Part shown: one piece after another, positions 1-64,000 of the stretch
Layout of the letters: each line of letters starts with the position of its first letter
Numbering within the stretch: position 1 is the first letter of the stretch
NCBI GenBank assembly: GCA_016190925.1
Contig: JACPPQ010000109.1
Location: 1,614 to 65,613, forward strand
Origin: Chloroflexota bacterium
GTDB lineage: Bacteria > Chloroflexota > Dehalococcoidia > Dehalococcoidales > JACPPQ01
DNA: 64,000 bases
Reading direction: 5' to 3'
Notes under the pieces: generated by a model
The model's database searches: none
Told to the model about the DNA's origin: nothing
Seen by the model: only the letters and a program-made list of their open reading frames with translations
Position numbers and translations under genes: made by a program

Positions 1-1076
1 CCCGGAAACATTTGTTTAACTGAAACCACCGGTATATTCACACCCCTGGCATCTTCCAATACCCAGACTGCTTCTATGCCGGGAACCATGCTTTCTAACT
101 CATTCCATAACAAGGCCACATGCCTGATGCATCCACCTGCTTGTGCGGAATCATTCATAACAGGCGGGCACCCTAGAATTATAGGGTCGTCCCTGTGAAG
201 CACGGTTTTTACCTTCAAAGCCGCTTCCATGCTGGAACCGCTGGCGTAATAACCTATCCATTCCGCAAATGGGCCTTCTTTTCTTGTTTCCACATCTGGC
301 GGCACAATCTCACCTTCCAGGGCTATTTCTGCAGTAGCCGGGATGGGGATGCCAGTAGAAGGTCCCCTGGTTACTTTGACAGGGTTTTGTCTTAACCATC
401 CGACATACTCGTATTCAGAACTTCCCCAGGGGATTTTAACCGAAGCGATTAAGAAAAGAAGAGGGTCCTGGCCGCAGGTAACAACCACCGGACAACTCTG
501 CCCCCGGTCCCAGTACTTCTGCCGTATTAACGCTCCGTGCTGGCCGGGTGCTATCCAGACCGTTGCGGTATCTTTATCATGGATTTGCACCCTGTACGTG
601 CCGAGGTTCACCCATCCATCATCGGGGTCTCTCATGATTACCGTGTCACCGGTGCCGATATATCTACCTCCATCGAGTGCATGCCACCTCGGGACGGGAA
701 ACTTGAATAAATCGATTTTGCTACCGGTAATAACATTCTCTTTAACCGGGGCATTGTCAACTTCAACCGGTGCAACTGGTACTACCCCATCTTTTAATTT
801 TTGGCGATAGTAGCTGACTACCTCCCGTTTGTTCTTCATCTCCGGGAAGCCCAACGCCAGAACGAGACGGCTGAGTTTGGGGAAGACGTTAGTGAGAACT
901 CTGTATCCTTTAGGATAGCCCTTGATGGAGTCAAACAGAAGCATGGGTGAATCCGGGACTGTGCCCATCACTTCGGCTATCGAGCCGATTTCCAACTCCC
1001 AGTCCGCGCCTTCAACAAGTTTGCACTCACCGAGTTCCTCAGTTTTTTTTATGAAGCTCCTCAAATCATCAATCAT
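1..1076 (-). CDS. UbiD-family (prFMN-type) decarboxylase/carboxylase, paralog 1; C-terminus runs off the left edge
   Basis: This ORF is absent from the ORF track because the window edge truncates it. My reverse-strand translation from the ATG at 1076..1074 gives MIDDLRSFIKKTEELGECKLVEGADWELEIGS... It contains DDGWVNLGTYR and EGPFAEWIGYYASG, motifs shared with the other UbiD-like ORFs here. Confidence 0.85.
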   Translation of the reverse strand, partial: MIDDLRSFIKKTEELGECKLVEGADWELEIGSIAEVMGTVPDSPMLLFDSIKGYPKGYRVLTNVFPKLSRLVLALGFPEMKNKREVVSYYRQKLKDGVVPVAPVEVDNAPVKENVITGSKIDLFKFPVPRWHALDGGRYIGTGDTVIMRDPDDGWVNLGTYRVQIHDKDTATVWIAPGQHGALIRQKYWDRGQSCPVVVTCGQDPLLFLIASVKIPWGSSEYEYVGWLRQNPVKVTRGPSTGIPIPATAEIALEGEIVPPDVETRKEGPFAEWIGYYASGSSMEAALKVKTVLHRDDPIILGCPPVMNDSAQAGGCIRHVALLWNELESMVPGIEAVWVLEDARGVNIPVVSVKQMFP

Positions 1077-1148
1077 AGTTGTGCTCTCCTGGTCTAAATT
1101 TTTTCGCTCATTTTGAGACTCTCAATGAAAAAGATGCTCTGTGCGCAG

Positions 1149-1270
1149 GTTGACATAACTCAATACAAAAATCAATAAAATCAAATCGAACACGGAGGCT
1201 AACAGCAAACCAAAACAAATCAAATCAAATAAATACGGGAGCTAAAAATACTCGTTAGTTGACATAACTC
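1149..1270. promoter_or_regulatory. Two copies of the 13-mer GTTGACATAACTC (1149..1161 and 1258..1270) in the region upstream of UbiD paralog 1
   Basis: An exact 13-nt direct repeat, 109 nt apart, lies in the 247-nt gap between the dctM stop and the UbiD-1 start. The intervening DNA is A-rich, low-complexity CAAAT/CAAAA sequence. Any operator or promoter role is inferred only. Confidence 0.3.
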
Positions 1271-1323
1271 TAAAAATAAATCCCAAAGCCAACCATTCAC
1301 GAATTGTTTCCCGAATTTTTTGT

Positions 1324-2643
1324 TTAACTCCCTTTGAACATGAGACTGGGAAGCCACAATGATAATTGGGGAAAAGCGAACATGAAAGCCATCGCTATCA
1401 AGTCGACATAGACAAACGGCAGGCCAGCTCGATAGACGTCCTGCATTGAATACTGCGGGGCTACACCCTTCATTACGAACAGGTTCAGGCCGAATGGGGG
1501 AGTAATTCCCGCTATTTCCAGATTAAGCAACGTTATCGCCCCGAACCATATCGGGTCGAAGCCCAGATTGCGAACAATAGGCATAAACATGGGTATGGTA
1601 ATCATCATTATGGGGACCTGGGACATGAACATGCCCATCACCAGTATAATGAGCTGCGTGATGATTATGATACCGATGGGGGATAGTGATAAATCAGAGA
1701 TGAATCCAGAAAGTCCCTTGCTGATGCCGGTAAAAACCAGGATTTGAGAGAAGACCTGTGCGCTGGTTAAAATAATAAGTACCATCGAGGTCATTTCAAT
1801 GGTTGTGAATAGCGCTCTTTTAATTTTCCCCCAATCAAGCTGCCTGTATAAGGCGGCTAAAAGCAGACTTCCAAGAGCACCCATGGCCGCTGCTTCGGTC
1901 GGTGTGGCAATGCCCAGGAATATAATTCCCAGAACCAAGAATACAATCAGTCCCAGCGGAAGGATGTAACGCACAGCGGCCATCAGTTTTTCTGAAAGTG
2001 GCAGGTCTGTCACCCGATAAGATGGCGCAATTTGTGGTTGGAGTTTGCATCTGGCGATAACATAAATTGCCATAAGAGCCGCTACCAGTAAGCCGGGTAC
2101 AACGATAGCCATGAAAAATTGCCCGATAGACATTTGTGCAAGAATCGCCAGGATAACTCCGAGACTGGTAGGTGGAATCAACATAGCCAGACCGCCGCTG
2201 CCTAAAATTGGTCCTAAGCACATTGGCTTTTGATAACCCCTTTTTTCCATCTCCGGAATAAGCGATGACCCCAGTAATGCCGTGCCACCCATGCTGGAGC
2301 CGCTCAAACAGGCGAACACAGTCCCACCGGCAATGGCAAGCAGCCCCAGTCTGCCTGGAAGACGCCCTATCCACATGTCCAGGGTATCTATCATGTTCCG
2401 CGCTACGCCGCTTACAAAAATCACCTCACCCATGAAGATGAAGAAAGCTACGGTTAAATAGGAAAAGTCACTTATAGAATCACGCAGGCTAAGAATAAGT
2501 TGGTTTAAACCCCTTTCGCCACCCCACAAAAGTAATGCGCCTATAATGCCAATAAGCATAAAACAAAAAACGGTCTCCAGCCCCAGCGCCATCAGGGCAA
2601 CCAGACCGCCAATCACAATCAAAGCGGCAAACTGCCATTCCAT
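1324..2643 (-). CDS. dctM: TRAP transporter large permease (DctM family)
   Basis: This is a 439-aa polytopic hydrophobic ORF. The motifs WIGRLPGRLGLLAIAGG and EKRGYQKPMCLGPILGSGGLAMLIPPS align by eye with the second DctM at 52170..53477. It starts 10 nt after dctQ. Confidence 0.9.
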   Translation of the reverse strand: MEWQFAALIVIGGLVALMALGLETVFCFMLIGIIGALLLWGGERGLNQLILSLRDSISDFSYLTVAFFIFMGEVIFVSGVARNMIDTLDMWIGRLPGRLGLLAIAGGTVFACLSGSSMGGTALLGSSLIPEMEKRGYQKPMCLGPILGSGGLAMLIPPTSLGVILAILAQMSIGQFFMAIVVPGLLVAALMAIYVIARCKLQPQIAPSYRVTDLPLSEKLMAAVRYILPLGLIVFLVLGIIFLGIATPTEAAAMGALGSLLLAALYRQLDWGKIKRALFTTIEMTSMVLIILTSAQVFSQILVFTGISKGLSGFISDLSLSPIGIIIITQLIILVMGMFMSQVPIMMITIPMFMPIVRNLGFDPIWFGAITLLNLEIAGITPPFGLNLFVMKGVAPQYSMQDVYRAGLPFVYVDLIAMAFMFAFPQLSLWLPSLMFKGS

Positions 2644-2653
2644 GAGTTCACCT

Positions 2654-3169
2654 CTACCGCTGACTAAGGGGGACGCTCTTCAGGGTTGTTATACTTTGAT
2701 GTATTTTTCTCAGGCATTGTATCAATAGAAGGAGGTAGGCTACAGGAATAATCCAGAGGACGGTTGCGTTGGGAATATTGAGAAACGAGGGTTGGTAAAT
2801 ACCTCCACGCCAATGGTTCCAGGTGGTCTGGACGCCGTACCAGAAAATAATGCCGCAGATTACGACTCCGAGAAATGCATTAAAGATACCGAGCAGGAGC
2901 TGATAGTTTGGTTTTAAACGGAGAGGTAGCAGGTCCATCCTGACATGCTTTCCTTCCCTCATCAGCTTTGCTGCAGGTAACATCACCATGAAAAACAGTA
3001 GAATCTGGTTGATTTCTATTTGCCATCTTATTGGCCAGCCGAACATTCTGAGGATGACATCAATTCCGACAGTTAACATCGCAAAGGCAAGCAAAGCACT
3101 TGCGATAGTTACTGCGGTATTAAGTACCCGGTCGAAATTGGCTCTGATTTTGCTGGCTATCTCTGTCAT
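2654..3169 (-). CDS. dctQ: TRAP transporter small permease (DctQ family)
   Basis: This 171-aa ORF has about four hydrophobic segments and lies directly upstream of dctM. It is paralogous in size and position to 53483..54004. Confidence 0.8.
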   Translation of the reverse strand: MTEIASKIRANFDRVLNTAVTIASALLAFAMLTVGIDVILRMFGWPIRWQIEINQILLFFMVMLPAAKLMREGKHVRMDLLPLRLKPNYQLLLGIFNAFLGVVICGIIFWYGVQTTWNHWRGGIYQPSFLNIPNATVLWIIPVAYLLLLIQCLRKIHQSITTLKSVPLSQR

Positions 3170-3357
3170 ACCTTCCCTTGGGAAAAAGCTTTAGCGAATA
3201 GCGCGAGCTGCAGGGGATAGTCATTTGCCGTTATTAAGCTCCGAATGTCTGATAATGGACATCCCGGGGCTTATTGCGAATTGATAAACTGGTGGCGTTC
3301 CTGCGTATACCGGTTATCGGTTTACTCAGAAAAATGGTATTGATTAACCCTATCTCC

Positions 3358-3542
3358 TTTACGTTAAGTAAACGCTCTGCGCTCTTGGCGCAGGGTAAAA
3401 AAATACAGTTTTCCAAAAGGACGTCCGCCTCAGGTGGATGGCCGCACGTAGAGCTTGCCTGAGCCTGCCCTGAGAGAAGCCGAAGGGTACCTGATACGGG
3501 GGTCAATGCCCTGCCCGCCTCTGGCGGGCGGAATTGCTTTAC
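3358..3542 (+). repeat. Composite hairpin-mosaic repeat, copy 1 (ends in GGAATTGCTTTAC)
   Basis: This copy aligns by eye with 4904..5111, 33307..33484 and, for the 3' half only, 61244..61347. It contains the hairpins CTGCGC-n5-GCGCAG, CGTCCGCC-TCA-GGTGGATG and CCCGCC-TCT-GGCGGG. Confidence 0.85.
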
Positions 3543-3625
3543 GAGCTGTTTGAAAAGTAAAAAGATTTGTGACTTGCCCTCTTTATTTCCCTCTCTCGAA
3601 AACAGGAAGGGAGAGCATTTTTTCT

Positions 3626-3755: not shown

Positions 3756-4799
3756 TTACTTTACAAAGAGTTGTCTTAGTTTGTCGTAAGTTTGCTGATT
3801 GACATTCTTCTTCAAGACCGCCCACCTTGATTCGTAGGCAAGATTAAGATACGATTTTGTATCTTCAGGGGAGAAGGTGATAGGCTGCATGCCTTTTTCC
3901 ACTATTGTTTTCTTCGCGGCTTTGGCCAGATTGTCCGGCCGTGAAGGGTCTGCCTCCAATTTTGCTGCCTCATTCACCAGTATGTCTTGCAAGTTCTTTG
4001 GGAGCTTATTGAATCGGTCCATGTTTATATAGGTCGATGTATTAGTGTAGTAGAATGGGTAGTCAATCCAGTATTTGACCACTTCATACCATTTGTTCTG
4101 CACTGTCAGGTCGTAGGTCATAACATAGCCGTCAATCAGTTTGGTTTGCAGGCTGGTGTAAATGTCACCAAAACCTACATTGAGGGGGGTGACGCTCAGG
4201 GCATTTAAGAACGGGGTATAAGTCGGCGTGGTGCGCATCTTTAGCCCGGCTAACTCTTTGGGAGTCTTTACCTGGGGATTCAGGAATATGGAGAACATGG
4301 CCTCGGTGTTAGTGGCAATCATCCCCAGCAAGTATACCTTTGCCCTCTCCTTGAAAAGGTCGCGGATATAGGCATACCCGCCGGCCTGCCGATTTTCCCA
4401 CGATTTATACGAGGAGATAGAAATGGCCAAAGTCTCCGGCACAACATATTCCCATTCATCGGTGAAGCTGAAGAGCATATCGATTGTACCGGAACGCACT
4501 GCCTCAGTCTGGTTTGCTCTGGGGATAGCCTCCGGCCCGCCGACGATGTCAATAACAAGCTGCCCGTTAGACGCTTTCTTGACATTATCAACAAAATCAT
4601 CGGCGCTGAGCATCGTCGCTGTATGGGCGGGCAAAACGGTTACCGCTTTCAGCACTATCGGAGCCGCGGTTGGCGCGGGCGCAGGTGCTGGTTTTGGCGT
4701 GGCCGTGGGTGCCGGAGCCGGGGTTCGTGTACAGCCTGCCAGAACAAGCACCGCTGCCAGCGCTAAGGTCAGAATCAGGATTACAGTTTTCATTTTCAT
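3756..4799 (-). CDS. dctP: TRAP substrate-binding lipoprotein (DctP family) with a Pro/Ala/Thr linker
   Basis: The track ORF is 3756..4811. I prefer the ATG at 4799 (M5) because GGAGGGG lies 5 nt upstream of it. The protein has a signal peptide with lipobox VLAGC followed by TPAPAPTATPKPAPAPAPTAAP. The mature domain is DctP-like. Confidence 0.85.
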   Translation of the reverse strand: MKMKTVILILTLALAAVLVLAGCTRTPAPAPTATPKPAPAPAPTAAPIVLKAVTVLPAHTATMLSADDFVDNVKKASNGQLVIDIVGGPEAIPRANQTEAVRSGTIDMLFSFTDEWEYVVPETLAISISSYKSWENRQAGGYAYIRDLFKERAKVYLLGMIATNTEAMFSIFLNPQVKTPKELAGLKMRTTPTYTPFLNALSVTPLNVGFGDIYTSLQTKLIDGYVMTYDLTVQNKWYEVVKYWIDYPFYYTNTSTYINMDRFNKLPKNLQDILVNEAAKLEADPSRPDNLAKAAKKTIVEKGMQPITFSPEDTKSYLNLAYESRWAVLKKNVNQQTYDKLRQLFVK

Positions 4800-4903
4800 T
4801 TTCCCCTCCATGGTAATGAATTACTATTTCAAGTTGGCGTTTGCTATTGATTTCCGAATATCCCACCTCCTCCGAACAAATCTAACTTTTTCCAAGGTTA
4901 TTG

Positions 4904-5111
4904 TTTACGAAGTAAACGCCCTGCGGTCTCTGCCGCAGGGTTAAAATATATAGGGTTTCCAAAGGGACGTCCGCCTCAGGCGGATGGCTTGCCTCCGCTG
5001 AAGCTTTAGCGCAAGCAGGCCGCACGCAGAGCTTGCCCCGTTCACAGTTTGCCCCGTACCTGATACGGGGGTCAACGCCCTGCCCGCCTCTGGCGGGCGG
5101 AATTGCTTTAC
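4904..5111 (+). repeat. Composite hairpin-mosaic repeat, copy 2
   Basis: Its hairpins are CCCTGCGG-n6-CCGCAGGG, CGTCCGCC-TCA-GGCGGATG, CCCCGTA-cctga-TACGGGG and CCCGCC-TCT-GGCGGG. It ends in GGAATTGCTTTAC, and its last bases overlap the stop codon of the minus-strand gene 5108..5380. Confidence 0.85.
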
Positions 5112-5380
5112 AGGTACTTCTCTACGGGATTGGGAAGTTTTTCCAGAATCTTGATTCTCATGGGTTCAGGTATGATAGATTCGTCATAATCCTTCACCCA
5201 TAAAACATCACCTTCAGGTAGTTTGGCCGGGTCCCTGGAGAATTGAGCTTTAACATATATCCGCTCCAGGGTTTTGTGGTCTTTTATTTCGACGTTATTA
5301 ATCTGGAATATCTGCCTGTTCTCAAAGTCTGCCGCCTTTCCGCTATCACGGATGTCTATCATAGTGGCTTCCCATTCCAT
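5108..5380 (-). CDS. Small Cys-free protein (90 aa), paralog of 6953..7216; candidate UbiD accessory subunit
   Basis: It lies immediately downstream of UbiD-2 on the same strand. It shares the block VKAQFSRDPAKLPEGDVLWVK with VKAILSSKPGELPGGDTLWIR in the other small ORF. I recognise no known family. Confidence 0.6.
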   Translation of the reverse strand: MEWEATMIDIRDSGKAADFENRQIFQINNVEIKDHKTLERIYVKAQFSRDPAKLPEGDVLWVKDYDESIIPEPMRIKILEKLPNPVEKYL

Positions 5381-5450: not shown

Positions 5451-6917
5451 TTATTTCAAACCGTACGAAGTCCAATTTTTCACTACTTTGTCCTGTAACT
5501 CTTTAGAATACATGGCTGCAAAGGTCACTTTGGGCGGTGCCGTAATTTCAAGCGGCCAGTCCAGAGGCCAGGTGGCGTCATAGACTATTTGTGGGCCTGT
5601 CTGGTCCATTCTTTCCTTCAAATCGGCGGAAGGTTGAAGCGGGCTGCCCTGCTGGTGATACACCCATATTCCCCGCTCCGGATGTACTTTTTCGACAAGG
5701 CTATTAATAACGTCATCTGTGTTAAAAACATCGGTATCTTCGTCACACACTAGAATTGCGTAGGAGTACAGGCCACCGGCAGCAGAGTATATAGCCGCTG
5801 CTACCCCCTGAGCCACCCTGGGTCTCCCTCTCTTGACGGACACTATGACCAGGTCAGCGACACCCGGATAGCAATGCACCTCTTTTACCGGCCAGCCAGC
5901 GTCAGTCAAAAGCTTTCGATAGAAAGCTGATTTTACAACAGGTGCGATTATGCCACCTTCGTCCCTGCCTCGGCCTACGCTGGCCATGGATAATATCGGG
6001 TTATTTCGCCAGGTTATGCACTTCACGACAAAAACGGGGCGCAGGTCTCTCGGCGAAGCCCTGAAGCCTGTATACTCGCCAAAGGGACCTTCGTACGCCC
6101 GCACATGCGGCGGAACTATACCTTCGATGACTATCTCGGAGGATGCGGGCACGTAAATGTCATTGGTTTCACATTTGACCAGTTCGAGAGGTTTCTTCCT
6201 CCAGCCTCCTACGGCATCAACCTCAGACATCTTTGCGGGAATGGGACTGGCCGCAGCAATGGCAGATAAGGGGTCGGGATTTATGGCAATGGCGCAGGGC
6301 ATTGGCTCGTTAGCATCCTCGTACTGTTGATAGAACATGTTGGGCCCGTGCTGTCCATAAACAAAAAGGCAACCCAGGCTTCTTCTATCGTGAATCATGT
6401 GCCGGTACATACCCCAGTTTACCCAATCACTATTCTTGTCCTTGGTAATGGTAGCGTGATAAGTGCACATATATCGGCCGCCATCGCCTTCATGTATCAT
6501 CGGCGCGGGAAAGGTATACAGGTTGCAATCATTTCCAAACGTTTTATTCTCTTTACAAGGGGCCTTCTTGACTACTACCGGTTTTATCGGATGTTCCAGC
6601 CCGGCAATATACAGGTCCTGTAGCTCCCGCCAGGTTGCCTTGTCAGGGTTCGGATGTCCAAAGATAATGGCCATGCGCTTCAGGTTACAGATGCTGGAGC
6701 TTATAATCGAATGACCGGGGTAGCCTTTAATGTTTTCAAAGAGCATAGCGGGTTGTCCACCGTGGTTGACGTTCTTTCCCTCACCGATTTCCAGGGCTCT
6801 GCGCGCAATGGCGCCAGCTTCCAGATTCCAGTCTACCTCTTTTTTTATCCTGGCAAGCTCTCCAGCCGCCTCCCAGTCAACTATCGCATCCCTGACGCTA
6901 TCGTGTGGGAATGGCAT
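5451..6917 (-). CDS. UbiD-family decarboxylase/carboxylase, paralog 2
   Basis: This 488-aa ORF has an AAGGAGAA ribosome-binding site. It carries the motifs DWVNWGMYRHM and EGPFGEYTGFRA, plus the typical N-terminal segment that contains GELARIKKEVDW. Confidence 0.9.
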   Translation of the reverse strand: MPFPHDSVRDAIVDWEAAGELARIKKEVDWNLEAGAIARRALEIGEGKNVNHGGQPAMLFENIKGYPGHSIISSSICNLKRMAIIFGHPNPDKATWRELQDLYIAGLEHPIKPVVVKKAPCKENKTFGNDCNLYTFPAPMIHEGDGGRYMCTYHATITKDKNSDWVNWGMYRHMIHDRRSLGCLFVYGQHGPNMFYQQYEDANEPMPCAIAINPDPLSAIAAASPIPAKMSEVDAVGGWRKKPLELVKCETNDIYVPASSEIVIEGIVPPHVRAYEGPFGEYTGFRASPRDLRPVFVVKCITWRNNPILSMASVGRGRDEGGIIAPVVKSAFYRKLLTDAGWPVKEVHCYPGVADLVIVSVKRGRPRVAQGVAAAIYSAAGGLYSYAILVCDEDTDVFNTDDVINSLVEKVHPERGIWVYHQQGSPLQPSADLKERMDQTGPQIVYDATWPLDWPLEITAPPKVTFAAMYSKELQDKVVKNWTSYGLK

Positions 6918-7280: not shown

Positions 7281-7382
7281 GTATAGATGCTAACTTGTTT
7301 GACTATCGATTATCTGCCAGACATAAGCGTAAATTATTGTAAGACTAATACCATATCCCCCTACCTTACTTTGCCTACACTG
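7281..7382 (-). promoter_or_regulatory. Conserved TGTAGG-box upstream element, copy a (read on the minus strand)
   Basis: The reverse complement reads TGTAGGCAAAGTAAGGTAGGGGGATATGGTATTAGTCTTACAATAATTTACGCTTATGTCTGGCAGATAATCGATAGTCAAACAAG. It closely matches copies b and c and sits upstream of the small-protein/UbiD-2 operon. Confidence 0.7.
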
Positions 7383-55953: not shown

Positions 55954-57659
55954 CTTCCCTGACCCCCGTTCGGCCGCACTGGGTACTCACTCATCGGGAG
56001 CGGCTCTACCCATGTCTTTATTTGTCGGCCTTCTCTTTTGGCTATTACCCACTTGAGCCAGTTCTTATCATCCCTTGCTGGATAATCCTCTCGGTAATGC
56101 GAGCCCCTGCTTTCGGTTCGCAACAATGCTGTATGTGCCAGAAGTTCCAGAAACAAGAGGCCGTTTTCCACTCCTATGACCCCTACCAGGTCGTGATAAT
56201 CTCTGGCCACCATTCTGGGTATTTCCTCATGCTTTATTCCCTGCACTATCTTCATCGCCGCCTTTAGCTTCCCATCGCTCCTAATTGGTCCAAACATCCC
56301 CTGTTCCTGTACGCTAACACAGTGTTCTCGCACTTCTTCCCGGGTCAAGCCGATCTGCCTCCACAGCGGTGCGAATATTTTGTTTTGCAGGCTCTCCACC
56401 TGATGGGTATCCACGGCCTGCAAGTCAAGAGCGGCCAAACTCCGGGCGGCAGCCTCTCCAGCGCGATGTCCCCCGATGGCTGATGCCATGCCGATGCTGA
56501 TAACGTCTGTCACTCCGACTTCAGCGTGGTCTGTTGCCGCACCGGCTGCGAACAGCCCGGTTAGCGTGGTAGCACCGCTTCTATTGACTCTGATTCCACC
56601 GGGGCATATGTCGGTCAAAGTGACCACGTAAGGAACCAGGTCTTTTCTGATATCGAGACCGCCGGCGGCAAAGGAGCGCATAACAATCGGAATAGCCATA
56701 TCGATGCGGCGGTAAGCGGCGTCATCCAGGTGGGTAGCATCCAGGTAGACCGGTCCACGGTTTTCCAGCATCTCGACCACAATAGCTCTCCCGACCAGCG
56801 ACCTGGTTGACCTCTCCACGAGTTCCTGGTCCCATTTCTTCATGAACCTCTCACCCTGGGCATTAACCATGACGGCCCCTTCGCCAAACAGGATATTTGC
56901 CCCGGGGGCTGTGTTGAAGTCTTTTGGCCTGTAGCCGTAGTGCGCCAGCTCGATATTCCTCATCTCACATCCGGCCCGAAAAGCCATCGCCTTGCCATCG
57001 CCGCTCAGGTTGTATACCGGCATCCTGGAAAGTATTGCCAGTGTGGGGCCGGTAGCAATTACCACTGCTTTGGCTCTAAAAACATAAAATGTGCCATTTC
57101 TGATGTTAAAGCCGGCTGCGCCAATTACCTGGCCGGTGGTCGGGAAATCGCCATCCGAGGTAAGCAGGTCGGTGGCCATAACTCGCTCTAATACGCGTGA
57201 GCCAAGGCGCAACACCTCCCCCCTCAGCACGGACATCATCTGAAGGCCGCCGTTGGTCAGAACTACGTTCCGGATATGGCGCTGGCCCACACACGCTTTT
57301 CGAAGACGTTTGCCGTTATCTCTCTGGAATGTAACTCCCCAACGCTCTAGGTCGTTTATTCTTTCGGCTGTTTCGGTCACCATTCCCTCCAGCCGGTGCT
57401 GGTCGCACAGCCATTCGCCGGCTTCAACACACTCCCGATACCACTGCTCGCGGTCATCGGTATCCGGGTCAAAACAGGTCAGCACCCCAGACATCTGGTG
57501 ACTCAAACCGCTTCTTCCTAGATTTCCTTTATCGACCATGACAACGTCGGCGCCAAGCTCTCTTGCCCTTATAGCCGCAAAACAGCCGGCAATTCCCCCG
57601 CCCAGCACCAGTACATCAGTTTCCAGAGTCTCGCTCTTTATTTGCTGTGAAACAGCCAT
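55950..57659 (-). CDS. FAD flavoprotein of the succinate dehydrogenase/fumarate reductase/AprA superfamily
   Basis: This 569-aa ORF contains DVLVLGGGIAGCFAAIRA, GLFAAGAA and ESRGSHYREDYPARDDKNWLKW, the last being a typical C-terminal motif of this superfamily. Confidence 0.75.
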   Translation of the reverse strand: MAVSQQIKSETLETDVLVLGGGIAGCFAAIRARELGADVVMVDKGNLGRSGLSHQMSGVLTCFDPDTDDREQWYRECVEAGEWLCDQHRLEGMVTETAERINDLERWGVTFQRDNGKRLRKACVGQRHIRNVVLTNGGLQMMSVLRGEVLRLGSRVLERVMATDLLTSDGDFPTTGQVIGAAGFNIRNGTFYVFRAKAVVIATGPTLAILSRMPVYNLSGDGKAMAFRAGCEMRNIELAHYGYRPKDFNTAPGANILFGEGAVMVNAQGERFMKKWDQELVERSTRSLVGRAIVVEMLENRGPVYLDATHLDDAAYRRIDMAIPIVMRSFAAGGLDIRKDLVPYVVTLTDICPGGIRVNRSGATTLTGLFAAGAATDHAEVGVTDVISIGMASAIGGHRAGEAAARSLAALDLQAVDTHQVESLQNKIFAPLWRQIGLTREEVREHCVSVQEQGMFGPIRSDGKLKAAMKIVQGIKHEEIPRMVARDYHDLVGVIGVENGLLFLELLAHTALLRTESRGSHYREDYPARDDKNWLKWVIAKREGRQIKTWVEPLPMSEYPVRPNGGQGR

Positions 57660-57677: not shown

Positions 57678-58970
57678 TTATTTGCCCCTGCCCCGTGGCC
57701 TTCTCTCACGGCTACATATATCGAGCGCAACCATGGCATATATTTCGGCAGCCTTGTACAGGTCGTCGATGAGAATGGAATAGTTTCTCCCGCCGGTCCC
57801 TGCCGCGGGGCCGTAGGTTAGAGAAGGGATGCCGACTTCGTTAAATATGTTGTTGTCTCTCCACATGCTGCACACCGGGCCGATAGCAGGCTCAGGCTTT
57901 TTCCCGAAAATGGCTTTATGAGCGTTGTCTACTGCTTCAACCAGTGGACCGATACCGGTAGCGTTAGCCTCGTAGCCCGGCTCCGATGCGAAGATGTCCA
58001 CTTCGCCATCCAGCTCCAGAGACCGGACTTTGTTTTCAAGCTCGGCCTTGATATCAAGAAAGTTCTGCCCCGGTGCTGTTCTGATGTCGATGTAAATTGA
58101 GCATACTTCAGACGTTCCATCGAGTGCAAAGGGCTCTCCCCCTCGTATAGCACCTATCGCGACTTTGGGAATCAGCGTACCGCCTGGGCATACGTACGTG
58201 TGCTCCCTCTCATAAACCGCCGCCCACGCTTCAATCTCGTTTATCAACCGGGACATCCGCACAATGGCATTTGGGTTCTTTTCAGGTGAATAGGAGCCTT
58301 TAAGGTACGGAGTGTACAAACGCGGTTCCCCGAACACTGTTATTTTGACGTACAGCTTTCCCGCCTCGACCCACGCCGACTGAAAATTGGTAGCTTCAGC
58401 TACAAGAGCATAGTCGGCAATTCCGCCGTGAGTAGCTATAAAGCGGGTGCCGATCTCGGTCCCCGGGCATTTAGGTGGCTGGAACTCATCGATTGGTTCC
58501 CAGGCAACCTCGCCGCTGACAGCGGTAAGTATGATATCACCTTTCAAAGCGATGCCTGCTTGCTTGATTGCCCTGGCAGCAATTAGAAAACATGCCATCG
58601 GCCCTTTGTCATTTACTATGCCGTTGCCGAAAAGCCTATCCCCCTCCCGCCATGCCTGGTGATAGATAGGGTCCTCGCTATCACGACGTGATAAGACTGC
58701 GTCACGGGATACCACCGTATCCATATGGCTATTGAAGAGAAGGCTTAATCCGCCCCCACTCCCCTTCAACGCGCCTATCACATTTGGACGGCTTTCCAGA
58801 AGACTGAGGACCTTCGTTTTGAATCCCTCCTGCTTGAGCCATGCCTCAACAGCTTGCGCCATTCCTCTTTCCTGGCCCGGAGGGCTATCGATGTTTCCAA
58901 GTTTCAAAGCAAGGTCGACCAGTTCTTCCCTGTCTATTTTTTCCAGGACTCGGTCAGTAACTGAAGCCAT
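57678..58970 (-). CDS. M20-family metallopeptidase/deacylase (ArgE/DapE/ACY1/hippuricase type)
   Basis: The track ORF starts at GTG 58985, but the ATG at 58970 follows GGGAG with 8-nt spacing. The sequence contains LLFNSHMDTV, the metal-binding H-x-D motif. Confidence 0.75.
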   Translation of the reverse strand: MASVTDRVLEKIDREELVDLALKLGNIDSPPGQERGMAQAVEAWLKQEGFKTKVLSLLESRPNVIGALKGSGGGLSLLFNSHMDTVVSRDAVLSRRDSEDPIYHQAWREGDRLFGNGIVNDKGPMACFLIAARAIKQAGIALKGDIILTAVSGEVAWEPIDEFQPPKCPGTEIGTRFIATHGGIADYALVAEATNFQSAWVEAGKLYVKITVFGEPRLYTPYLKGSYSPEKNPNAIVRMSRLINEIEAWAAVYEREHTYVCPGGTLIPKVAIGAIRGGEPFALDGTSEVCSIYIDIRTAPGQNFLDIKAELENKVRSLELDGEVDIFASEPGYEANATGIGPLVEAVDNAHKAIFGKKPEPAIGPVCSMWRDNNIFNEVGIPSLTYGPAAGTGGRNYSILIDDLYKAAEIYAMVALDICSRERRPRGRGK

Positions 58971-58999
58971 TAATTTAACTCCCACAAGTTATTTAGCCT

Positions 59000-60439
59000 C
59001 TATGTCTTAAACAGGTGCGCAAATCTTTTCCAGCTTTCTCTTCTATACTCCTGGTCTGATTGAACAGGCATGGGGAATTTATCTTTCCACTCGAAGGGCA
59101 TGGTAGCATCGATAATAGCGCGGGAATTCATGTACCGTCCTGCCGTGCGGTCTTCGGGAGAGACCAGGGCATCCAGGGCGCTTGTCCTCGCCCTGCGAAT
59201 GATGTCGACAGAAGTGGCCGGGTCACACCGGGTTAATACCGCCCACAGTACATCCTTCAGGTCCGTGACATCAATGTCTTCATCGACCACTACCACTAAT
59301 TTGCCGACGTTCGACCCTGTGATAGCGTACACCGCGTGTCCCACCTGCCTCGAATGGCCGCCGAACTGCTGTTTGATGGCTACCGCGGTCAGGAGTTTGC
59401 AGGCCCCCTCTCCGTAGCACCAGATATTGCTTATCCCTTGAATGCCGGTCTGCTTCAACTCGTTGAAAACGAGCGCGGATTCGATATATTGCCGCGCCTT
59501 ATCCGCATCATACGGTGGTTTTTCAGATGGCACTCCCAGCAGGATAGGGTCATTGCGGAAATAGACCGCCTCTACATCCACATAAGGAGCTTCACCGCTA
59601 CCGGAGGCATAATACCCCATCCACTCGCCAAACGGACCTTCCAGCCTGGTCTTTCCCGGATAAGAGAAGCCTTCTATCGCTATCTCGGCGGCTGCTGGTA
59701 TTGGAAGTCCGGTCACAGGCCCCTTTATCACTTTCACAGGACTGCCGCGCCATCCTCCGACCCAGTCCAGTTCGCTCACACCCCACGGCAGGTCGGTCAT
59801 TCCTCCTGCGAACAGAAGCGGGTCGCTTCCAAACACGATAGCTACTGGACACGGCTTTCCTTTGGCAATATACTTCTGCCGATGTGCGTAACCATGCGGC
59901 ACACGGGAGCTGAAGAAACCCACAGTCTTCTTGTCCAGAAGTTGGTTCCTGTAAGTGCCTACGTTGACCCATCCTTCATCCGGGTCTCGTGTTATTACCA
60001 TGCATCCCGTGCCGATGTAAGGCCCTCCATCCTGGCGGTGCCACATGGGGACAGGAAAGCGGTTCAAGTCTACTTGGTTTCCGGTGAGCTGGTTCTCAAA
60101 TATGGGGCCGGTATCAACGTATTCTGGGGGAATTAATTTCAGCCCCGCTAGCTTCTTCTTGAAATGCTCCAGCAAGGACTTCCGGTCTGAAACTAGGGGA
60201 AAGCCGAACGTGATAGCTATCTGGCGGATACTGCCATACGGGTTAATCAGAATGCGGTAGCCGGGCTCGAAACCGGGGAATTCGTCCAGGACAATAGACG
60301 GTGCGGTTTCCATGCTGGCGGCAATTTCAGCAATTCTGCCTGTATCTTCTTTCAGGTCTATCGATTTGGCTATCTTTAGTTCGCCGATTTCTTCAACCTT
60401 TGCTAACCACTGCCGCAAGTCTTCATAGTCTACTCCCAT
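59000..60439 (-). CDS. UbiD-family decarboxylase/carboxylase, paralog 5
   Basis: This 479-aa ORF contains DEGWVNVGTYRNQ and EGPFGEWMGYYASG. It is collinear with paralog 4 from the first residue (MGVDYEDLRQWLAKVEEIGEL versus MGTEYRDLREWLSKVEEIGEL). Confidence 0.9.
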   Translation of the reverse strand: MGVDYEDLRQWLAKVEEIGELKIAKSIDLKEDTGRIAEIAASMETAPSIVLDEFPGFEPGYRILINPYGSIRQIAITFGFPLVSDRKSLLEHFKKKLAGLKLIPPEYVDTGPIFENQLTGNQVDLNRFPVPMWHRQDGGPYIGTGCMVITRDPDEGWVNVGTYRNQLLDKKTVGFFSSRVPHGYAHRQKYIAKGKPCPVAIVFGSDPLLFAGGMTDLPWGVSELDWVGGWRGSPVKVIKGPVTGLPIPAAAEIAIEGFSYPGKTRLEGPFGEWMGYYASGSGEAPYVDVEAVYFRNDPILLGVPSEKPPYDADKARQYIESALVFNELKQTGIQGISNIWCYGEGACKLLTAVAIKQQFGGHSRQVGHAVYAITGSNVGKLVVVVDEDIDVTDLKDVLWAVLTRCDPATSVDIIRRARTSALDALVSPEDRTAGRYMNSRAIIDATMPFEWKDKFPMPVQSDQEYRRESWKRFAHLFKT

Positions 60440-60530
60440 TGGTCTCCTTCCTAAATAACGGCGAATCGCAAACCCTATCGGATAAGACTATCCGCTGACA
60501 AGCCTCAGTGTTACGGCTTCTCGTCCAGTT

Positions 60531-60640
60531 GTTATAGTGTATACTATTCTCAAGTCAATTGTTAATGGATGTCTGACGGATTTTTGCGTCAGTTTTTGTA
60601 AGGCTAATACTATGCTTACTCTCCAGTCTTTTCCTACACG
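60531..60640 (-). promoter_or_regulatory. TGTAGG-box upstream element, divergent copy e (read on the minus strand)
   Basis: The reverse complement reads TGTAGGAAAAGACTGGAGAGTAAGCATAGTATTAGCCTTACAAAAACTGACGCAAAAATCCGTCAGACATCC... The first ~45 nt are collinear with copies a-c. The GATGTCTG(A/G)C motif is present in the inverted orientation. It lies upstream of the UbiD-5 operon. Confidence 0.5.
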
Positions 60641-60886
60641 GTTGGCTTATGGAAAGGGGAGTTGCAACAGGCACAAATTAAATTTTGCTAGAAAACACTC
60701 AGCATGACAGCGTTGGTGACTGATTACAACCTCGATTATGAAGTTATTGACAATTACCAAGCAAACATGGTTATATAACTTACACTGCCCGGCAAATTTC
60801 CTGCGGACAAGGATAAAAGGACCTGCACCGTGTTAGTACTTAGTTGCAATATTGAGCGTAATGATGTTTTGGTGTTTCGTACATCT

Positions 60887-61347
60887 GGTGGCACTCGCCT
60901 CAGGCGAGTCCCTTTAGGGAGAACCCTTCAGGGTGAACCCTGCCTGTGCACCTTGACTAACAATTACGCTGATTCATGCAACTTAGCACTAGTGTGCCGT
61001 ATCAGAAATACGTTGACTAAATATTTTGTCATTTCCCCCTTTCGCAAAGGGGGATTAAGGGGGATTCTGAACCTGTCCGACAGAAAATTCCTCTCAGTCT
61101 CCCTTTCGTAGAGGGAGAGAACTTATTCAAGTTACTTGCGAGACAGGATACTAGGATGGTGAATCGCAAATAACGTTAGCCCGGCATTCACCCATTACTT
61201 CGAAAATACCCAAATTTCCTCTCCCTTGAGAAGGAGAGGATTAAAGCTTGCCCAAGCCTGCCCGCCGTAGCCTTGTGCGTTGGCAGGAGCGAAGCCGAAG
61301 GGTACTTGTTACGGGGGGCAATGCCCTGTGGTGCGGAATTGCTTTAC
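60887..61347. repeat. Mosaic of hairpin modules filling the divergent UbiD-5 / UbiD-6 intergenic region
   Basis: GGTGGCACTCGCCTCAGGCGAGT at 60887 is the same 23-mer as at 54188. Other modules are CCCCCTTT-cgc-AAAGGGGG (61035..61053), TCTCCCT-n7-AGGGAGA (61098..61118) and CCTCTCC-n8-GGAGAGG (61218..61239). The 3' half of the composite repeat spans 61244..61347. Confidence 0.8.
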
Positions 61348-61410
61348 TTTTCGGACAGCTTCCTGGATGACAGCAAATTCCTAACCTACCAAAATCTGAA
61401 GGAGTGAACG

Positions 61411-62844
61411 TTGGCATATAAAGACTTGCGGGAATTCATGGCTTTACTGGAAAAGAGGAGACTTCTGGTTAGAGTTAAGTCAGAAGTGGACCCTTCCTGG
61501 GAAATCAACGGCGTTACCAGGAGGCTTCAAGAGGTAGGCGGACCGGCAGTGCTTTTTGAAAATGTAGGAGGGCACCAGGTCCCTGTTCTTTCCGAGCTTG
61601 TTGGAACGCCGGAGCGCCTGGCTTTAGCCCTGGGGATGGACTCTTCCACAACTGAAAAGCAAATCACAGAGGAGTGGGTCCGGCGGATTGAACATCCTGT
61701 TCCACCAAGGTTGGTAAGCACTGGTCCATGTAAAGAGAACATCCTGAAAGGTATTAAAGCTGACCTGAATGCGGTATTCCCGCCTGTAATCTGGCACAAA
61801 GGAGATGGCGGACCGTTTATCGGTGTTCTTGGCCTGCAAGTCACCAGGGACCCGGAGACCGGGGTACAGAACACAGGTATTTACCGCCAGATGGTCAGGA
61901 GCAAGAATGAGACCGGCCTTTATATGCCGGCCTACCAGCACGGCGGCCAGCACTTGCAAAAATGGGCGCGATTATATCCCGGCAAGCCCATGCCTCTAGC
62001 CGTTGTCCTTGGGCCGGAACCTTGTTACCTGCTTGCCGCCGGTGCCAAATTTCATCATCCGCCTGGAGAGGATGTCTATACGGGTGCTCTGAGACAGGAG
62101 CCATTGGAGCTGGTCAGGTGCGAGACCTGCGACATCGAGGTGCCTGCCACGGCTGAAATCATTCTGGAAGGTGAGGTCTATCCCGAAGAGTTCAAGACGG
62201 ATGGCCCATTTGGAGAGTACACCGGTTTCCTCGGCGGAGAACAAGAATTCAACGTCTTCCATTTGAAAGCTATAACCCATCGCAATAATCCTATCTTCCA
62301 GGGTACCCGGGAAGGCGCTCCACGCGGCAAGGGCTGGGTAGAAAGCGGCCTCCTGTGGATTAAGGGAGAAGAATACCAGTTATATAAGGAGCTTAAGAAG
62401 ATTAACGGGGTGATAGATGTTTGTGTGCCACTGTGGTGCAGCGGTTTCCACGCGGTGGTCTCAATCAGGAAGTTGAGGGCCGGACAACCTTTTCAAATTA
62501 TCCAGAGAATTTTCGGAGATGAAGAATTCGGCTCGCTCATAAAACATGTAATAGTGGTCGATGAAAACATCGATGTCCGCAATCCAAAAGAAGTTGAATG
62601 GGCCGTAGCCAACCTCGTCCAGGGTGACAGGGATATATTGGTAGTTCCCAGGTGTCCCGGCGAAGGACTGGATACCTCTCAACCTTATTCTAAACGTTTC
62701 TGGACGTCAAAGGTTGGCATTGATGCAACCGTACCGACTTACGAATATCAGGCTGAAGGACGGACGCCGCCACCCACATGTCTTGACCCGGACATCGTGG
62801 CCAGGGTAATCGCGCAGTGGGATAAATACGGGATAAATATATAG
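61411..62844 (+). CDS. UbiD-family decarboxylase/carboxylase, paralog 6
   Basis: This 477-aa ORF has a TTG start after AAGGAG, supported by alignment with paralog 7 (MAYKDLREF...). The motifs GVQNTGIYRQM and DGPFGEYTGFLG are present. Confidence 0.9.
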   Translation: MAYKDLREFMALLEKRRLLVRVKSEVDPSWEINGVTRRLQEVGGPAVLFENVGGHQVPVLSELVGTPERLALALGMDSSTTEKQITEEWVRRIEHPVPPRLVSTGPCKENILKGIKADLNAVFPPVIWHKGDGGPFIGVLGLQVTRDPETGVQNTGIYRQMVRSKNETGLYMPAYQHGGQHLQKWARLYPGKPMPLAVVLGPEPCYLLAAGAKFHHPPGEDVYTGALRQEPLELVRCETCDIEVPATAEIILEGEVYPEEFKTDGPFGEYTGFLGGEQEFNVFHLKAITHRNNPIFQGTREGAPRGKGWVESGLLWIKGEEYQLYKELKKINGVIDVCVPLWCSGFHAVVSIRKLRAGQPFQIIQRIFGDEEFGSLIKHVIVVDENIDVRNPKEVEWAVANLVQGDRDILVVPRCPGEGLDTSQPYSKRFWTSKVGIDATVPTYEYQAEGRTPPPTCLDPDIVARVIAQWDKYGINI

Positions 62845-62904
62845 TGGCCTGAGTCTGAATGTCTTTACAAAAATAGTACCACCTTATTCAACAACAATGG
62901 AAAG

Positions 62905-63150
62905 TCGGGGTGTCTAAGAGGAATGCCGACCCCTCTTCTAATATCCTATGGGGGTGGGGTTCCCATCCAGGGGTTTTGGCGAGTGGTGCGAGCCAAAACC
63001 CCCTAAAAGCATCTGAGGCTGTCCAAAAATGGCCTGTCACTCTGAACGAAGTGAAGAATCTGGGGGATGTAAGGGGAAGTGAATTCCCCTCCCCGAGAAT
63101 CTTCAGTCGTCCGCCTCGGCGGACACTCTCAGAATGACATTTCGGACAGC
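62905..63150. repeat. Hairpin modules in the spacer between the tandem UbiD-6 and UbiD-7 genes
   Basis: An 11-bp stem GGGGTTTTGGC-n11-GCCAAAACCCC spans 62970..63002. GGGGAA-n5-TTCCCC lies near 63073. GTCCGCC-tc-GGCGGAC spans 63109..63124. TTCGGACAGC at 63141 is also seen at 3661 and 61350. Confidence 0.75.
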
Positions 63151-63314
63151 CTCTTAGGGTGAGGGTAATATTCTTCCAAATTAGTGCCACAAAAAGACAT
63201 CTATTTTGGACAAGCGTAATTTGGAGATTCGGAATTTATTTTGATTTTCAAAGAGCTATTCAAAGCTTTGTCCAGGCGATAAATATACACCATTCTTAAA
63301 GATGGGGAAAAACT

Positions 63315-64000
63315 ATGGCATATAAAGATTTAAGAGAATTCATAGCTCTGCTGGAACAGAAAGGCCACCTGGTCAGGGTGAAGGCTGAGGTGAACCCGTC
63401 ATGGGAGATAAATGGCATCACCAATAAACTTACCAGGGAAAACGGCCCGGCAGTGCTTTTTGAAAATGCAGGAGGGCACAAAGTCCCCGTTCTTTCCGAG
63501 CTGCTGGGAAGGTCCCAGAGACGATATGCACTGGCGTTGGGTCTTGATACGGATGATGTGAGAGTAATAAGAGACGAATGGCTGAAGAGGATTAACCATC
63601 CCATAACCCCGAGATTAGTAAAGACCGGCCCGTGCAAGGAGAATATCCTCACAGGTGACAGGGCTGACCTGAACGCTATCTTCCCTCCGGTGCTCTGGCA
63701 CAAAGGCGATGGCGCACCGTTTGTTGGTACACAGGGCCTTCAGGTGACCAGGGACCCGGAAACGGGAGTCCAGAACACCGGTGTTTACCGGCAAATGGTG
63801 TTCTCTAAGAACGAGACCAGCCTCATGATGCAGCCCTTCCAGCACGGAGCGCAGCATCTTCAGAAATGGGTGCGCCTGTACCCCGGCAAGCCGATGCCTG
63901 TGGCGGTTGTCATCGGCCCTGAACCATGCTACCTTATAACGGCTGGTGGAAAGTTCTCACACCCGCCGAGCGAAGACGCCTACGCGGGAGGGCTGAGGCA
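63315..64000 (+). CDS. UbiD-family decarboxylase/carboxylase, paralog 7; runs off the right edge
   Basis: This ORF is absent from the ORF track because the window edge truncates it. My translation from the ATG at 63315 gives MAYKDLREFIALLEQKGHLVRVKAEVNPSWEINGITNKL...GVQNTGVYRQM... About two-thirds of residues match paralog 6 by eye. Confidence 0.85.
   Translation, partial: MAYKDLREFIALLEQKGHLVRVKAEVNPSWEINGITNKLTRENGPAVLFENAGGHKVPVLSELLGRSQRRYALALGLDTDDVRVIRDEWLKRINHPITPRLVKTGPCKENILTGDRADLNAIFPPVLWHKGDGAPFVGTQGLQVTRDPETGVQNTGVYRQMVFSKNETSLMMQPFQHGAQHLQKWVRLYPGKPMPVAVVIGPEPCYLITAGGKFSHPPSEDAYAGGLR

Follow-up and report, generated by a model that had tools for sequence, protein, structure and literature searches.

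Seven UbiD-family genes, their importers and a shared upstream element in a Chloroflexota bacterium

We analysed a 64,000-nt stretch of a metagenome-assembled contig from an uncultured Chloroflexota bacterium (GenBank assembly GCA_016190925.1, contig JACPPQ010000109.1, positions 1,614 to 65,613), called the window below, which carries seven genes of the UbiD family. Our favoured reading, held with moderate confidence, is that these genes form importer-coupled decarboxylase modules, dependent on prenylated flavin mononucleotide (prFMN), for aromatic and N-heteroaromatic acids. There would be some five enzyme systems, including a heteromeric one, with four operons co-regulated and the gene for the prenyltransferase UbiX located elsewhere. 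UbiD enzymes are sought as catalysts of reversible (de)carboxylation and, to our knowledge, only a handful of them have known substrates. About five uncharacterised systems come from one organism, whose binding proteins are usable to fish for substrates, and groundwater Chloroflexota join the anaerobes with expanded UbiD repertoires.

In the proposed mechanism, the host would be a strictly anaerobic, monoderm Chloroflexota bacterium, in which each module would combine a binding-protein-dependent carboxylate importer (of the tripartite ATP-independent periplasmic (TRAP), tripartite tricarboxylate (TTT) or major facilitator superfamily (MFS) type) with a single UbiD protein or a pair of them. 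Carboxylic acids brought in by the importer, aromatic and above all N-heteroaromatic ones, would then be decarboxylated non-oxidatively at a conserved Arg-Glu-Glu/prFMN active site, and the supply of prFMN would depend on a ubiX gene outside the window. Numbering the paralogs U1 to U7 by position along the window, the systems would be U2 with two small proteins (g1 and g2) and U1, U3 with a TctCAB importer, U4, U5, and the tandem pair U6/U7. Nothing known is overturned, because multi-UbiD clusters and unlinked ubiX genes are already established. The additions are modest ones, namely a conserved U2-g1-g2 module and a four-copy upstream element in a cluster that is already generically annotated in NCBI.

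Seven UbiD paralogs, their active sites and their importers

We built the gene map from the open reading frame (ORF) list, a Pfam scan of all ORFs of at least 150 aa, and small ORFs in intergenic gaps. The Pfam UbiD model PF01977 matched all seven ORFs (E 5e-30 to 5e-63) at the positions where a sequence-only reading of the window had placed them, and the UbiD_N and/or UbiD_C domains were also matched wherever the sequence is present, in keeping with the three-domain UbiD architecture. A tblastn search of the window with all seven proteins returned exactly seven homologous segments and no eighth UbiD, extra fragment or pseudogene. U1 and U7 are truncated by the window ends. In NCBI, where the window proteins exactly match entries MBI2831872 to MBI2831918, all from a single contig of 72,957 bp, these genes are annotated 'UbiD family decarboxylase'. 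The seven genes, described by their likeness to the phenazine-1-carboxylate decarboxylase PhdA, to phenylphosphate carboxylase (Ppc) and to the furandicarboxylate decarboxylase HmfF, are as follows.

1-1076, minus strand: U1, UbiD, PhdA-like and Ppc-beta-like (PF01977 E 6.5e-60), cut by the window start
5451-6917, minus strand: U2, UbiD, Ppc-alpha-like (PF01977 E 5.5e-63)
12427-14037, plus strand: U3, UbiD with a C-terminal extension (PF01977 E 3e-58), nearest solved relative HmfF
20710-22146, plus strand: U4, UbiD, PhdA-like (PF01977 E 4e-58), Gln at the His191 position
59000-60439, minus strand: U5, UbiD, PhdA-like (PF01977 E 1.4e-60)
61411-62844, plus strand: U6, UbiD, closest to canonical UbiD and HmfF (PF01977 E 6e-62), Asp at the E277 position
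63315-64000, plus strand: U7, UbiD, tandem paralog of U6 (PF01977 E 5e-30; repeats D1/D2), cut by the window end

The four subgroups that had been seen by eye (1/4/5, 6/7, 2 and 3) were recovered by pairwise identity and by a neighbour-joining tree. In a MAFFT alignment, U4 and U5 are 68% identical in protein, U6 and U7 are 72% identical, U1 is 41–43% identical to U4 and U5, and U2 and U3 are each 27–35% identical to all others. The tree is small, with Fdc1, PhdA and E. coli UbiD as its characterised members, and was supplemented by PDB and NCBIfam score tables; it groups E. coli UbiD with the U6/U7 pair and U3, joins U4, U5 and their relatives to a pair of U1 and PhdA, and places U2 and its relatives with Fdc1. 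Among species-representative genomes, relatives of U4 reach an identity of at most 69%.

We set the register of the active-site motifs by a phmmer alignment of U2 to Aspergillus niger Fdc1 (4ZA4, native numbering), in which all six active-site positions of U2 align. The Asn and Arg of the N-x-G-x-YR motif correspond to N168, a Mn ligand, and R173; the QHG His aligns with H191, the Glu in SE-x-D aligns with E233, and EGPFGE supplies E277 and E282. In MAFFT alignments, N168, R173 and E233 are kept in all seven window UbiDs and E282 in all six that reach that far, while the E277 position holds Glu in U1 to U5 and Asp in U6 (U7 ends before the EGPFGE motif). When the seven were aligned with 243 database relatives, N168, R173, E233, E277 and E282 were almost invariant. 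H191 is present in six of the seven, with Gln at this position in U4 (SAGQG) and His in both PhdA and U5.

The predicted metal and prFMN-phosphate ligands (N168, H191 and E233) and the predicted R173/E277/E282 network are thus both found, and the seven paralogs appear catalytically competent. The motifs had been called conserved from the sequence alone, with misalignment against structures named as something that would refute that claim; against Fdc1 their register proved correct, and the only deviations are the Gln in U4 and the Asp in U6. We rejected the idea that U4 is a pseudo-enzyme, as the substitution recurs in relatives and the other catalytic residues are intact. Gln occupies the H191 position in 4 of 120 members of the U4 family (U4 itself counted), and Asp, Gln or Asn does so in 38 of 123 members of the U2 family; we therefore read the Gln of U4 as a tolerated variant and not as inactivation.

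The genes lie in two groups, U1 to U4 on the left (1-22146) and U5 to U7 on the right (59000-64000), with some 37 kb between them that carries unrelated genes of anaerobic catabolism. From 8770 down past position 1, the minus strand of the left group reads MFS, g1, U2, g2, DctP/Q/M and U1; its plus strand reads TctC/A/B, U3, DctP_b, HydA/HydB/gamma, an isochorismatase hydrolase, U4, an Isf-like FMN reductase, a second isochorismatase hydrolase and a nitroreductase. In the right group, the minus strand carries U5, an M20 deacylase, a fumarate-reductase-type flavoprotein, a ferredoxin and DctP/Q/M, and the plus strand carries U6 and U7. The importer genes are listed below.

1324-2643 (DctM), 2654-3169 (DctQ) and 3756-4811 (DctP), minus strand: TRAP transporter a (PF06808, PF04290, PF03480), its DctP a lipoprotein
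7565-8770, minus strand: MFS transporter (PF07690 E 5e-51)
9095-10279 (TctC), 10385-11899 (TctA) and 11883-12347 (TctB), plus strand: TctCAB tripartite tricarboxylate transporter (PF03401, PF01970, PF07331)
14257-15378, plus strand: DctP_b, orphan TRAP binding protein (PF03480 E 1.9e-35; NF037995)
52170-53477 (DctM), 53483-54004 (DctQ) and 54486-55619 (DctP), minus strand: TRAP transporter c (Pfam)

Importer genes adjoin UbiD genes on the same strand. The transporters named in the sequence-only reading are all present (two complete DctPQM TRAP sets, TctCAB and one MFS transporter), together with one orphan DctP. The sequence-only claim of a different importer for each paralog is right only for U3 and U5, which have one of their own; U1 and U2 flank one TRAP system, U4 has the orphan binding protein only, and no partner gene of U6 or U7 is visible in the window. 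The binding proteins DctP_a, DctP_b, DctP_c and TctC all carry a lipobox of the form L-(A/V)-(A/G)-(G/S)-C and, after it, a long linker rich in Pro, Ala and Thr. This pattern fits a monoderm host and also explains an inverted repeat (I4, 4660-4702 versus 14357-14399) that falls in binding-protein N-termini.

The further claims of one dedicated island and of an exceptional density did not hold. The two groups are split by other catabolic genes, and the local densities (four UbiD genes in 22 kb on the left, three in about 5 kb on the right) are matched elsewhere. Seventeen related loci, of at most 21 kb each, hold one to four UbiD genes, including four in 8.5 kb in a metagenome-assembled genome (MAG) of a groundwater deltaproteobacterium (L006), and published naphthalene and phenanthrene carboxylase clusters, that of strain N47 among them, comprise five UbiD-family genes (PMC6849830). 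With seven UbiD genes in 64 kb, the window is at the upper end of a kind already known.

Relatives, likely substrates and the U2-g1-g2 module

The closest solved structure to U4 is its best PDB match, PhdA (7PDA, 354 bits), the phenazine-1-carboxylate decarboxylase of Mycolicibacterium fortuitum (PMC10850782). Identity to PhdA is 43% for U1, 40% for U4 and 39% for U5, which makes these three PhdA-like, and PhdA acts on an N-heteroaromatic acid; at 39–43% identity, its substrate is not transferable to them. PhdA belongs to a phdABC operon (PMC10850782, PMC13040415), in which PhdC is an HpaC-like prFMN maturase (PMC13040415). We did not find a PhdABC-type arrangement, as the window holds neither a UbiX (PhdB) nor a PF01613 HpaC-like protein (PhdC) and, unlike the PhdA system, its host is an anaerobe.

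The remaining paralogs have more distant solved relatives. U2 matches Fdc1 (204 bits) and PA0254/HudA (192 bits), while U6 matches E. coli UbiD (2IDB, 240 bits) and, second, HmfF (226 bits). The best match of U3 is also HmfF (6H6X, 188 bits), a 2,5-furandicarboxylate decarboxylase (6H6V/6H6X), and a dicarboxylate substrate would fit the TctCAB importer; unlike HmfF, to which its similarity is low, U3 has no hmfG/UbiX partner and carries a C-terminal extension of about 60 aa. None of the window UbiDs resembles phthaloyl-CoA decarboxylase (Pcd), against which they score only about 63 bits. Anaerobic phthalate clusters combine a TRAP transporter, a CoA transferase or ligase, Pcd (structures 8OZ5 and 8PMK) and UbiX. 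The window resembles them in the genetic coupling of a TRAP importer to a UbiD enzyme of anaerobic aromatic acid degradation, and differs in that its UbiDs have no adjacent CoA transferase or ligase and there is no UbiX in the window.

The neighbours of U4 and U5 provide a lead to their substrates.

15743-17842 (HydA), 17846-19699 (HydB) and 19724-20005 (acetone-carboxylase gamma-like), plus strand: ATP-dependent hydantoinase/oxoprolinase family (PF01968, PF02538, PF08882)
20057-20707, plus strand: isochorismatase-family hydrolase 1, BiuH/RutB-like (PF00857 E 5e-39; NF050097, 84 bits)
22168-22950, plus strand: Isf-like FMN reductase (PF03358) with a CxxCxxC...C motif
22992-23669, plus strand: Cys-type isochorismatase hydrolase (PF00857) with a TTSGCV motif
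23720-24469, plus strand: nitroreductase (PF00881), BluB-like (70 bits)
55624-55953 (4Fe-4S ferredoxin), 55950-57659 (fumarate-reductase-type flavoprotein) and 57678-58985 (ArgE/DapE/YgeY-like M20 deacylase), minus strand: partners of U5 (Pfam, NCBIfam)

The best NCBIfam matches of this hydantoinase/oxoprolinase-family enzyme are to caprolactamase alpha (558 bits) and to acetophenone carboxylase subunits, all below cut-off, and isochorismatase-family hydrolase 1 is without the Cys nucleophile (its sequence is TTNIGP). A relative of U4 and U5 at 68% identity (L011, 1-16031, ENA contig_92032) lies directly after two complete molybdenum hydroxylases of the xanthine dehydrogenase type, enzymes that are typical N-heterocycle hydroxylases. 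Downstream at that locus are a second UbiD gene, DctPQM, a HisKA_3 kinase/LuxR regulator pair and an aldehyde ferredoxin oxidoreductase (AFOR) with its ferredoxin, in a layout that echoes the window. From the cyclic-amide and amidohydrolase neighbours, to which a dihydropyrimidinase-like gene in the vicinity adds, and these molybdenum hydroxylases, we infer that N-heteroaromatic carboxylic acids are the most likely substrates of U4 and U5. In the U4 module, the isochorismatase-type hydrolases and the caprolactamase-like ATPase would probably first release or reshape the free acid, a task that would probably fall to the M20 deacylase in the U5 module. With PhdA-like U1, U4 and U5 among cyclic-amide and amidohydrolase genes, the (de)carboxylation of aromatic or heteroaromatic acids that had been proposed beforehand is still the most reasonable role.

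U2 stands between two small genes, g1 directly upstream and g2 directly downstream.

6953-7216, minus strand: g1, 87 aa, Ppc-gamma-like (PF09662 E 1.4e-5)
5108-5380, minus strand: g2, 90 aa, paralog of g1

The g1 protein scores 25.6 bits with PF09662 (Phenyl_P_gamma; cut-off 25), as expected of a small gamma subunit, and its exact sequence is labelled 'phenylphosphate carboxylase subunit gamma' by NCBI. PF09662 is matched in 13 of the 21 listed g1-family proteins, a set of 20 relatives plus g1 itself. The relatedness of g2 is to g1 only (36% identity, E 5e-11). This arrangement recurs elsewhere. In an 'uncultured Desulfobacterium sp.' (L015/L016), g2-like (42%) and g1-like (64%) ORFs lie directly upstream of a 52%-identical U2 homolog named 'putative phenylphosphate carboxylase alpha subunit'; in another Chloroflexota MAG (L017), a U2 homolog of 65% identity is followed by a g2 of 61% identity; and a third locus (L002) has a g1-like ORF after its U2-like gene. 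The U2-g1-g2 module is conserved across phyla, and provides a concrete case, open to testing, of Ppc-gamma-type small subunits outside the metabolism of phenol.

Phenylphosphate carboxylase of Thauera aromatica (PpcABCD) has an alpha-beta-gamma core and a delta phosphatase. As in PpcABCD, U2 is best matched by the alpha subunit and U1 by the beta subunit, with g1 as gamma. The Ppc alpha model TIGR02723 ranks first for U2 in NCBIfam at 357 bits, below its equivalog cut-off of 564.6 bits, so that U2 is not an alpha equivalog. The Ppc beta model TIGR02724 (cut-off 469 bits) ranks first for U1, at 229 bits on only 358 visible aa, and for the full-length U4 and U5, at 291 and 271 bits, which are below the cut-off. 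Taken with the conserved module, these matches make U2, g1, g2 and possibly U1 resemble the alpha-beta-gamma core, and together they probably form a heteromeric, Ppc-core-like enzyme around TRAP transporter a. Judged by sequence, they do not qualify as phenylphosphate carboxylase itself. Unlike PpcABCD, the window has two gamma-like genes instead of one, scores well below the equivalog cut-offs, and a TRAP operon between the alpha-like and beta-like genes; Pfam scans of the window ORFs found no Ppc delta subunit (a haloacid dehalogenase (HAD) phosphatase) and no phenylphosphate synthase (a phosphoenolpyruvate-utilising enzyme).

This likeness raises the alternative that the enzymes, or part of them, work in the direction of carboxylation. 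They would then serve in the anaerobic activation of phenolic compounds or of unsubstituted (poly)aromatics, as subunits of large complexes like Ppc or the naphthalene, phenanthrene and benzene carboxylases. We consider this alternative unlikely, while acknowledging several points in its favour. One is the Desulfobacterium protein with the alpha-subunit name, to which U2 is 52% identical and which adjoins g1/g2-like ORFs. Another is the resemblance of the U4-adjacent hydantoinase-family enzyme to ATP-dependent acetophenone and acetone carboxylases. A third comes from the carboxylase clusters of N47, NaphS2 and Candidatus Desulfatiglans TRIP_1, in which several UbiD genes are accompanied by a PpcA-like gene, a Ppc-gamma-like gene and a succinate-dehydrogenase-type flavoprotein (PMC6849830).

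The window shares with these clusters of strict anaerobes the presence of several UbiD genes, a flavoprotein of this type with an Fe-S partner nearby (the flavoprotein and ferredoxin of the U5 operon) and a PpcA-like UbiD beside a Ppc-gamma-like ORF; the predicted pairing of naphthalene-carboxylase-type clusters is present in g1-U2-g2, and also in L015/L016, L017 and L002. The window differs in having carboxylate importers and amidohydrolases, in its phylum, Chloroflexota, in the spread of its UbiDs over separate operons, and in containing no MRP/ParA (Fer4_NifH) ATPases, HAD hydrolases or outer-membrane hydrocarbon channel. Besides the missing Ppc delta/HAD phosphatase, phenylphosphate synthase and MRP/ParA-type ATPases among the window ORFs, no aryl-CoA ligase or aryl-CoA reductase adjoins a UbiD gene, the Ppc alpha and beta scores fall far below the equivalog cut-offs, and the carboxylate importers of the modules suit acids as substrates rather than hydrocarbons.

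A shared upstream element and the supply of cofactor

Four UbiD operons are preceded by copies of an element of about 105 nt, found by repeat search, alignments (A1/A2) and nhmmer. The fourth copy was detected with an nhmmer model built from the other three only. The copies, and a candidate regulator pair, are as follows.

7285-7394, minus strand: element copy 1, ahead of g1-U2-g2-TRAPa-U1 (repeat search I1/I2; nhmmer E 1.6e-32)
8895-9004, plus strand: element copy 2, ahead of TctCAB-U3 (repeat search D7/I1; nhmmer E 2.3e-32)
14062-14170, plus strand: element copy 3, ahead of the DctP_b...U4 operon (repeat search D7/I2; nhmmer E 1.9e-29)
60548-60651, minus strand: element copy 4, more diverged, ahead of U5 (nhmmer E 4.2e-7; alignment A2)
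27420-29697, plus strand: MEDS-PAS histidine kinase and LuxR-type response regulator (Pfam), the latter at 29071-29697, candidate regulator

Each copy is oriented with its downstream operon and ends 70–110 nt before the first start codon, and every operon behind a copy contains a UbiD gene; U6 and U7 have no element. The first genes behind the copies (g1, TctC, DctP_b and U5) are non-homologous, and the similarity of the copies is therefore not a by-product of gene duplication. Two of the copies form a 97-nt inverted repeat (7291-7387 and 8902-8998, 81% complementary) that brackets the MFS gene, a placement by which the g1-U2 and TctC-U3 promoters point away from that gene on either side.

We rejected a riboswitch or leader RNA, finding an RNAalifold energy of -7 kcal/mol, almost no covariation, and no Rfam hit at gathering or at E≤1; without a convincing conserved RNA structure or Rfam match, a DNA-level site is preferred. 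Inside the element there was no match to the sigma-70 consensus, and a sigma-54 reading of its TGGCAG...-12 did not fit by eye. The position of the copies suggests a shared promoter or operator that would join the four operons into one regulon and, carrying the same element, these are probably switched on together by one regulator, for which the kinase and LuxR-type pair and an AsnC protein are candidates within the window. The element offers a handle on regulation.

The placement of the element also bears on the possibility that the seven paralogs are functionally unrelated and merely neighbours in a region rich in catabolic genes, with no common regulation or pathway, the element being a duplicated promoter fragment or a meaningless repeat. 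The 37 kb of unrelated genes between the groups would agree with this, as would the presence of another intergenic repeat family in the window and the absence of the element from U6/U7. The best named relatives of U2 are in Chloroflexota and those of U4 in Desulfatiglandales, Syntrophorhabdales and Archaeoglobi, and such nearest relatives in different phyla suggest piecemeal acquisition. Opposing it is a placement that is both exclusive and oriented, at the same position at four UbiD operon starts and nowhere else in the 64 kb, ahead of non-homologous genes. We regard a chance neighbourhood as doubtful.

We next consider the supply of cofactor. No match to the UbiX/flavoprotein family was found among the 46 non-UbiD window ORFs scanned against Pfam, and the best tblastn match of authentic E. 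coli UbiX (b2311) to the window has an E-value of only 5.5; the same probe worked as a positive control on a related locus, L004, where it found a gene of 58% identity (E 8e-73). An earlier statement that the window contains no UbiX is thereby borne out. A 216-aa ORF directly upstream of U4, considered as an overlooked UbiX, was rejected as an isochorismatase-family hydrolase. Within 10 kb of a UbiD gene, ubiX occurs in just one of the 17 related loci, and in E. coli K-12 ubiX and ubiD are also far apart. An unlinked ubiX is therefore usual and its absence from the window unremarkable.

Several points weigh against the favoured reading of importer-coupled decarboxylase modules. No paralog reaches any NCBIfam equivalog cut-off, so that substrates are not transferable, and the gene surroundings of U4 and U5 do not recur around the closest relatives of these two. 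UbiD enzymes can run in either direction, and the named enzyme nearest to U2 and U1, Ppc, works as a carboxylase. Gln replaces the His191 metal ligand in U4. Between U2 and U1 stand a TRAP operon and two hairpin-rich repeats, so that their co-transcription and complex formation are only putative. The element has no recognisable sigma-70 or sigma-54 consensus, an nhmmer search found no further copy in the 64-kb window or the 17 related loci, and its core had 0 matches in a metagenome scan with a degenerate pattern; its regulatory role is consequently deduced from position only. Finally, placing ubiX elsewhere in the genome is an assumption.

A more specific version of the favoured reading is speculative and, in our estimation, rather improbable. 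It proposes one inducible decarboxylase regulon of the four element operons, a new heteromer for imported acids that joins a Ppc-alpha-like UbiD, two gamma-like proteins and a PhdA/beta-like UbiD, and an O2-independent oxidative maturation of prFMN by the U4-adjacent Isf-like flavoprotein and/or the BluB-like nitroreductase, which would replace the HpaC-like PhdC of aerobes.

The clustering could lastly be an artefact of a chimeric or collapsed MAG contig, as the source is a metagenome-assembled contig with short intergenic repeats (exact matches up to 56 nt). We dismiss this as very improbable. With at most 72% identity in protein and about 74–75% in DNA, the UbiD paralogs are too diverged for collapse or cross-joining, and the 56-nt match, which is the longest exact repeat, falls in an intergenic repeat rather than in a UbiD gene. 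Tetranucleotide composition is even along the window (r 0.89–0.94, each 8-kb segment versus the rest), and GC content is 47–55% throughout with no Ns. The binding proteins of different modules have a lipobox and linker style in common, and the upstream element connects the two ends of the window.

Intervening genes and other intergenic repeats

Between the two groups (24.5–52.1 kb) lies a catabolic gene-rich region of a strict anaerobe that is not devoted to UbiD, with genes that include an AsnC regulator (32822-33286), a CoA ligase, a class-III aminotransferase and a dihydropyrimidinase-like amidohydrolase. At 24490-27088, on the minus strand, a thiolase (NF004810, 519 bits) adjoins a protein like 3-hydroxy-3-methylglutaryl-CoA synthase (HMGCS) fused to a DUF35 module (zf-ChsH2 and OB fold). 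These genes are the archaeal-type thiolase/HMGCS/DUF35 trio with two of its parts fused, and could be tied to isoprenoid (prenyl-phosphate) supply or to the handling of beta-keto acids. At 33876-36308, on the plus strand, the gene for an acyl-CoA mutase large subunit (645 bits) precedes one in which a B12-binding domain is fused to a methylmalonyl-CoA epimerase (glyoxalase) domain.

The plus strand at 39251-52116 carries two 2,4-diaminopentanoate-dehydrogenase-like genes, a ThiS-like GG-ended protein (40289-40561), a Fer2_4/SoxA-like/DAO trio, three tungsten-type AFOR paralogs (39–40% identical), two of which have Fer4_11 ferredoxin partners, and a third Isf-like FMN reductase. This stretch looks like a block for the fermentation of amino acids and aldehydes that has no relation to the UbiD genes; in the related loci L011 and L015, UbiD genes also have AFOR neighbours. 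The three AFOR genes, the Isf-like flavoproteins and the ferredoxins indicate an anaerobic lifestyle of the host. By protein accession numbering, NCBI appears to annotate one gene more than our map between the first AFOR gene and U5.

The FMN reductases are three paralogous FMN_red proteins of about 260 aa with the CxxCxxC...C motif of the iron-sulfur flavoprotein type (22168-22950, 30116-30913 and 48721-49506). The first two are 59% identical, and the first lies directly after U4. The longest ORF of the dihydropyrimidinase-like amidohydrolase (30828-32471) overlaps the second FMN_red gene by 86 nt, so that its true start is probably further downstream.

Scans of the whole window for tRNA genes and Rfam families found nothing. 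A hairpin-rich intergenic repeat of about 200 nt, resembling a repetitive extragenic palindrome (REP-like), occurs in one orientation at 3343-3543, 4956-5112 and 33292-33485, with a fragment at 61287-61328. Its copies are at most 97% identical with an exact match of 56 nt, their RNA fold z-score is -3.0, and they have no Rfam match; two of them fall within the g2-DctP-DctQ intergenic gaps. In addition, an identical perfect hairpin motif (CTCCCTTTCGCAAAGGGAG-like) is found in two intergenic regions, at 49584-49617 and 61033-61066.

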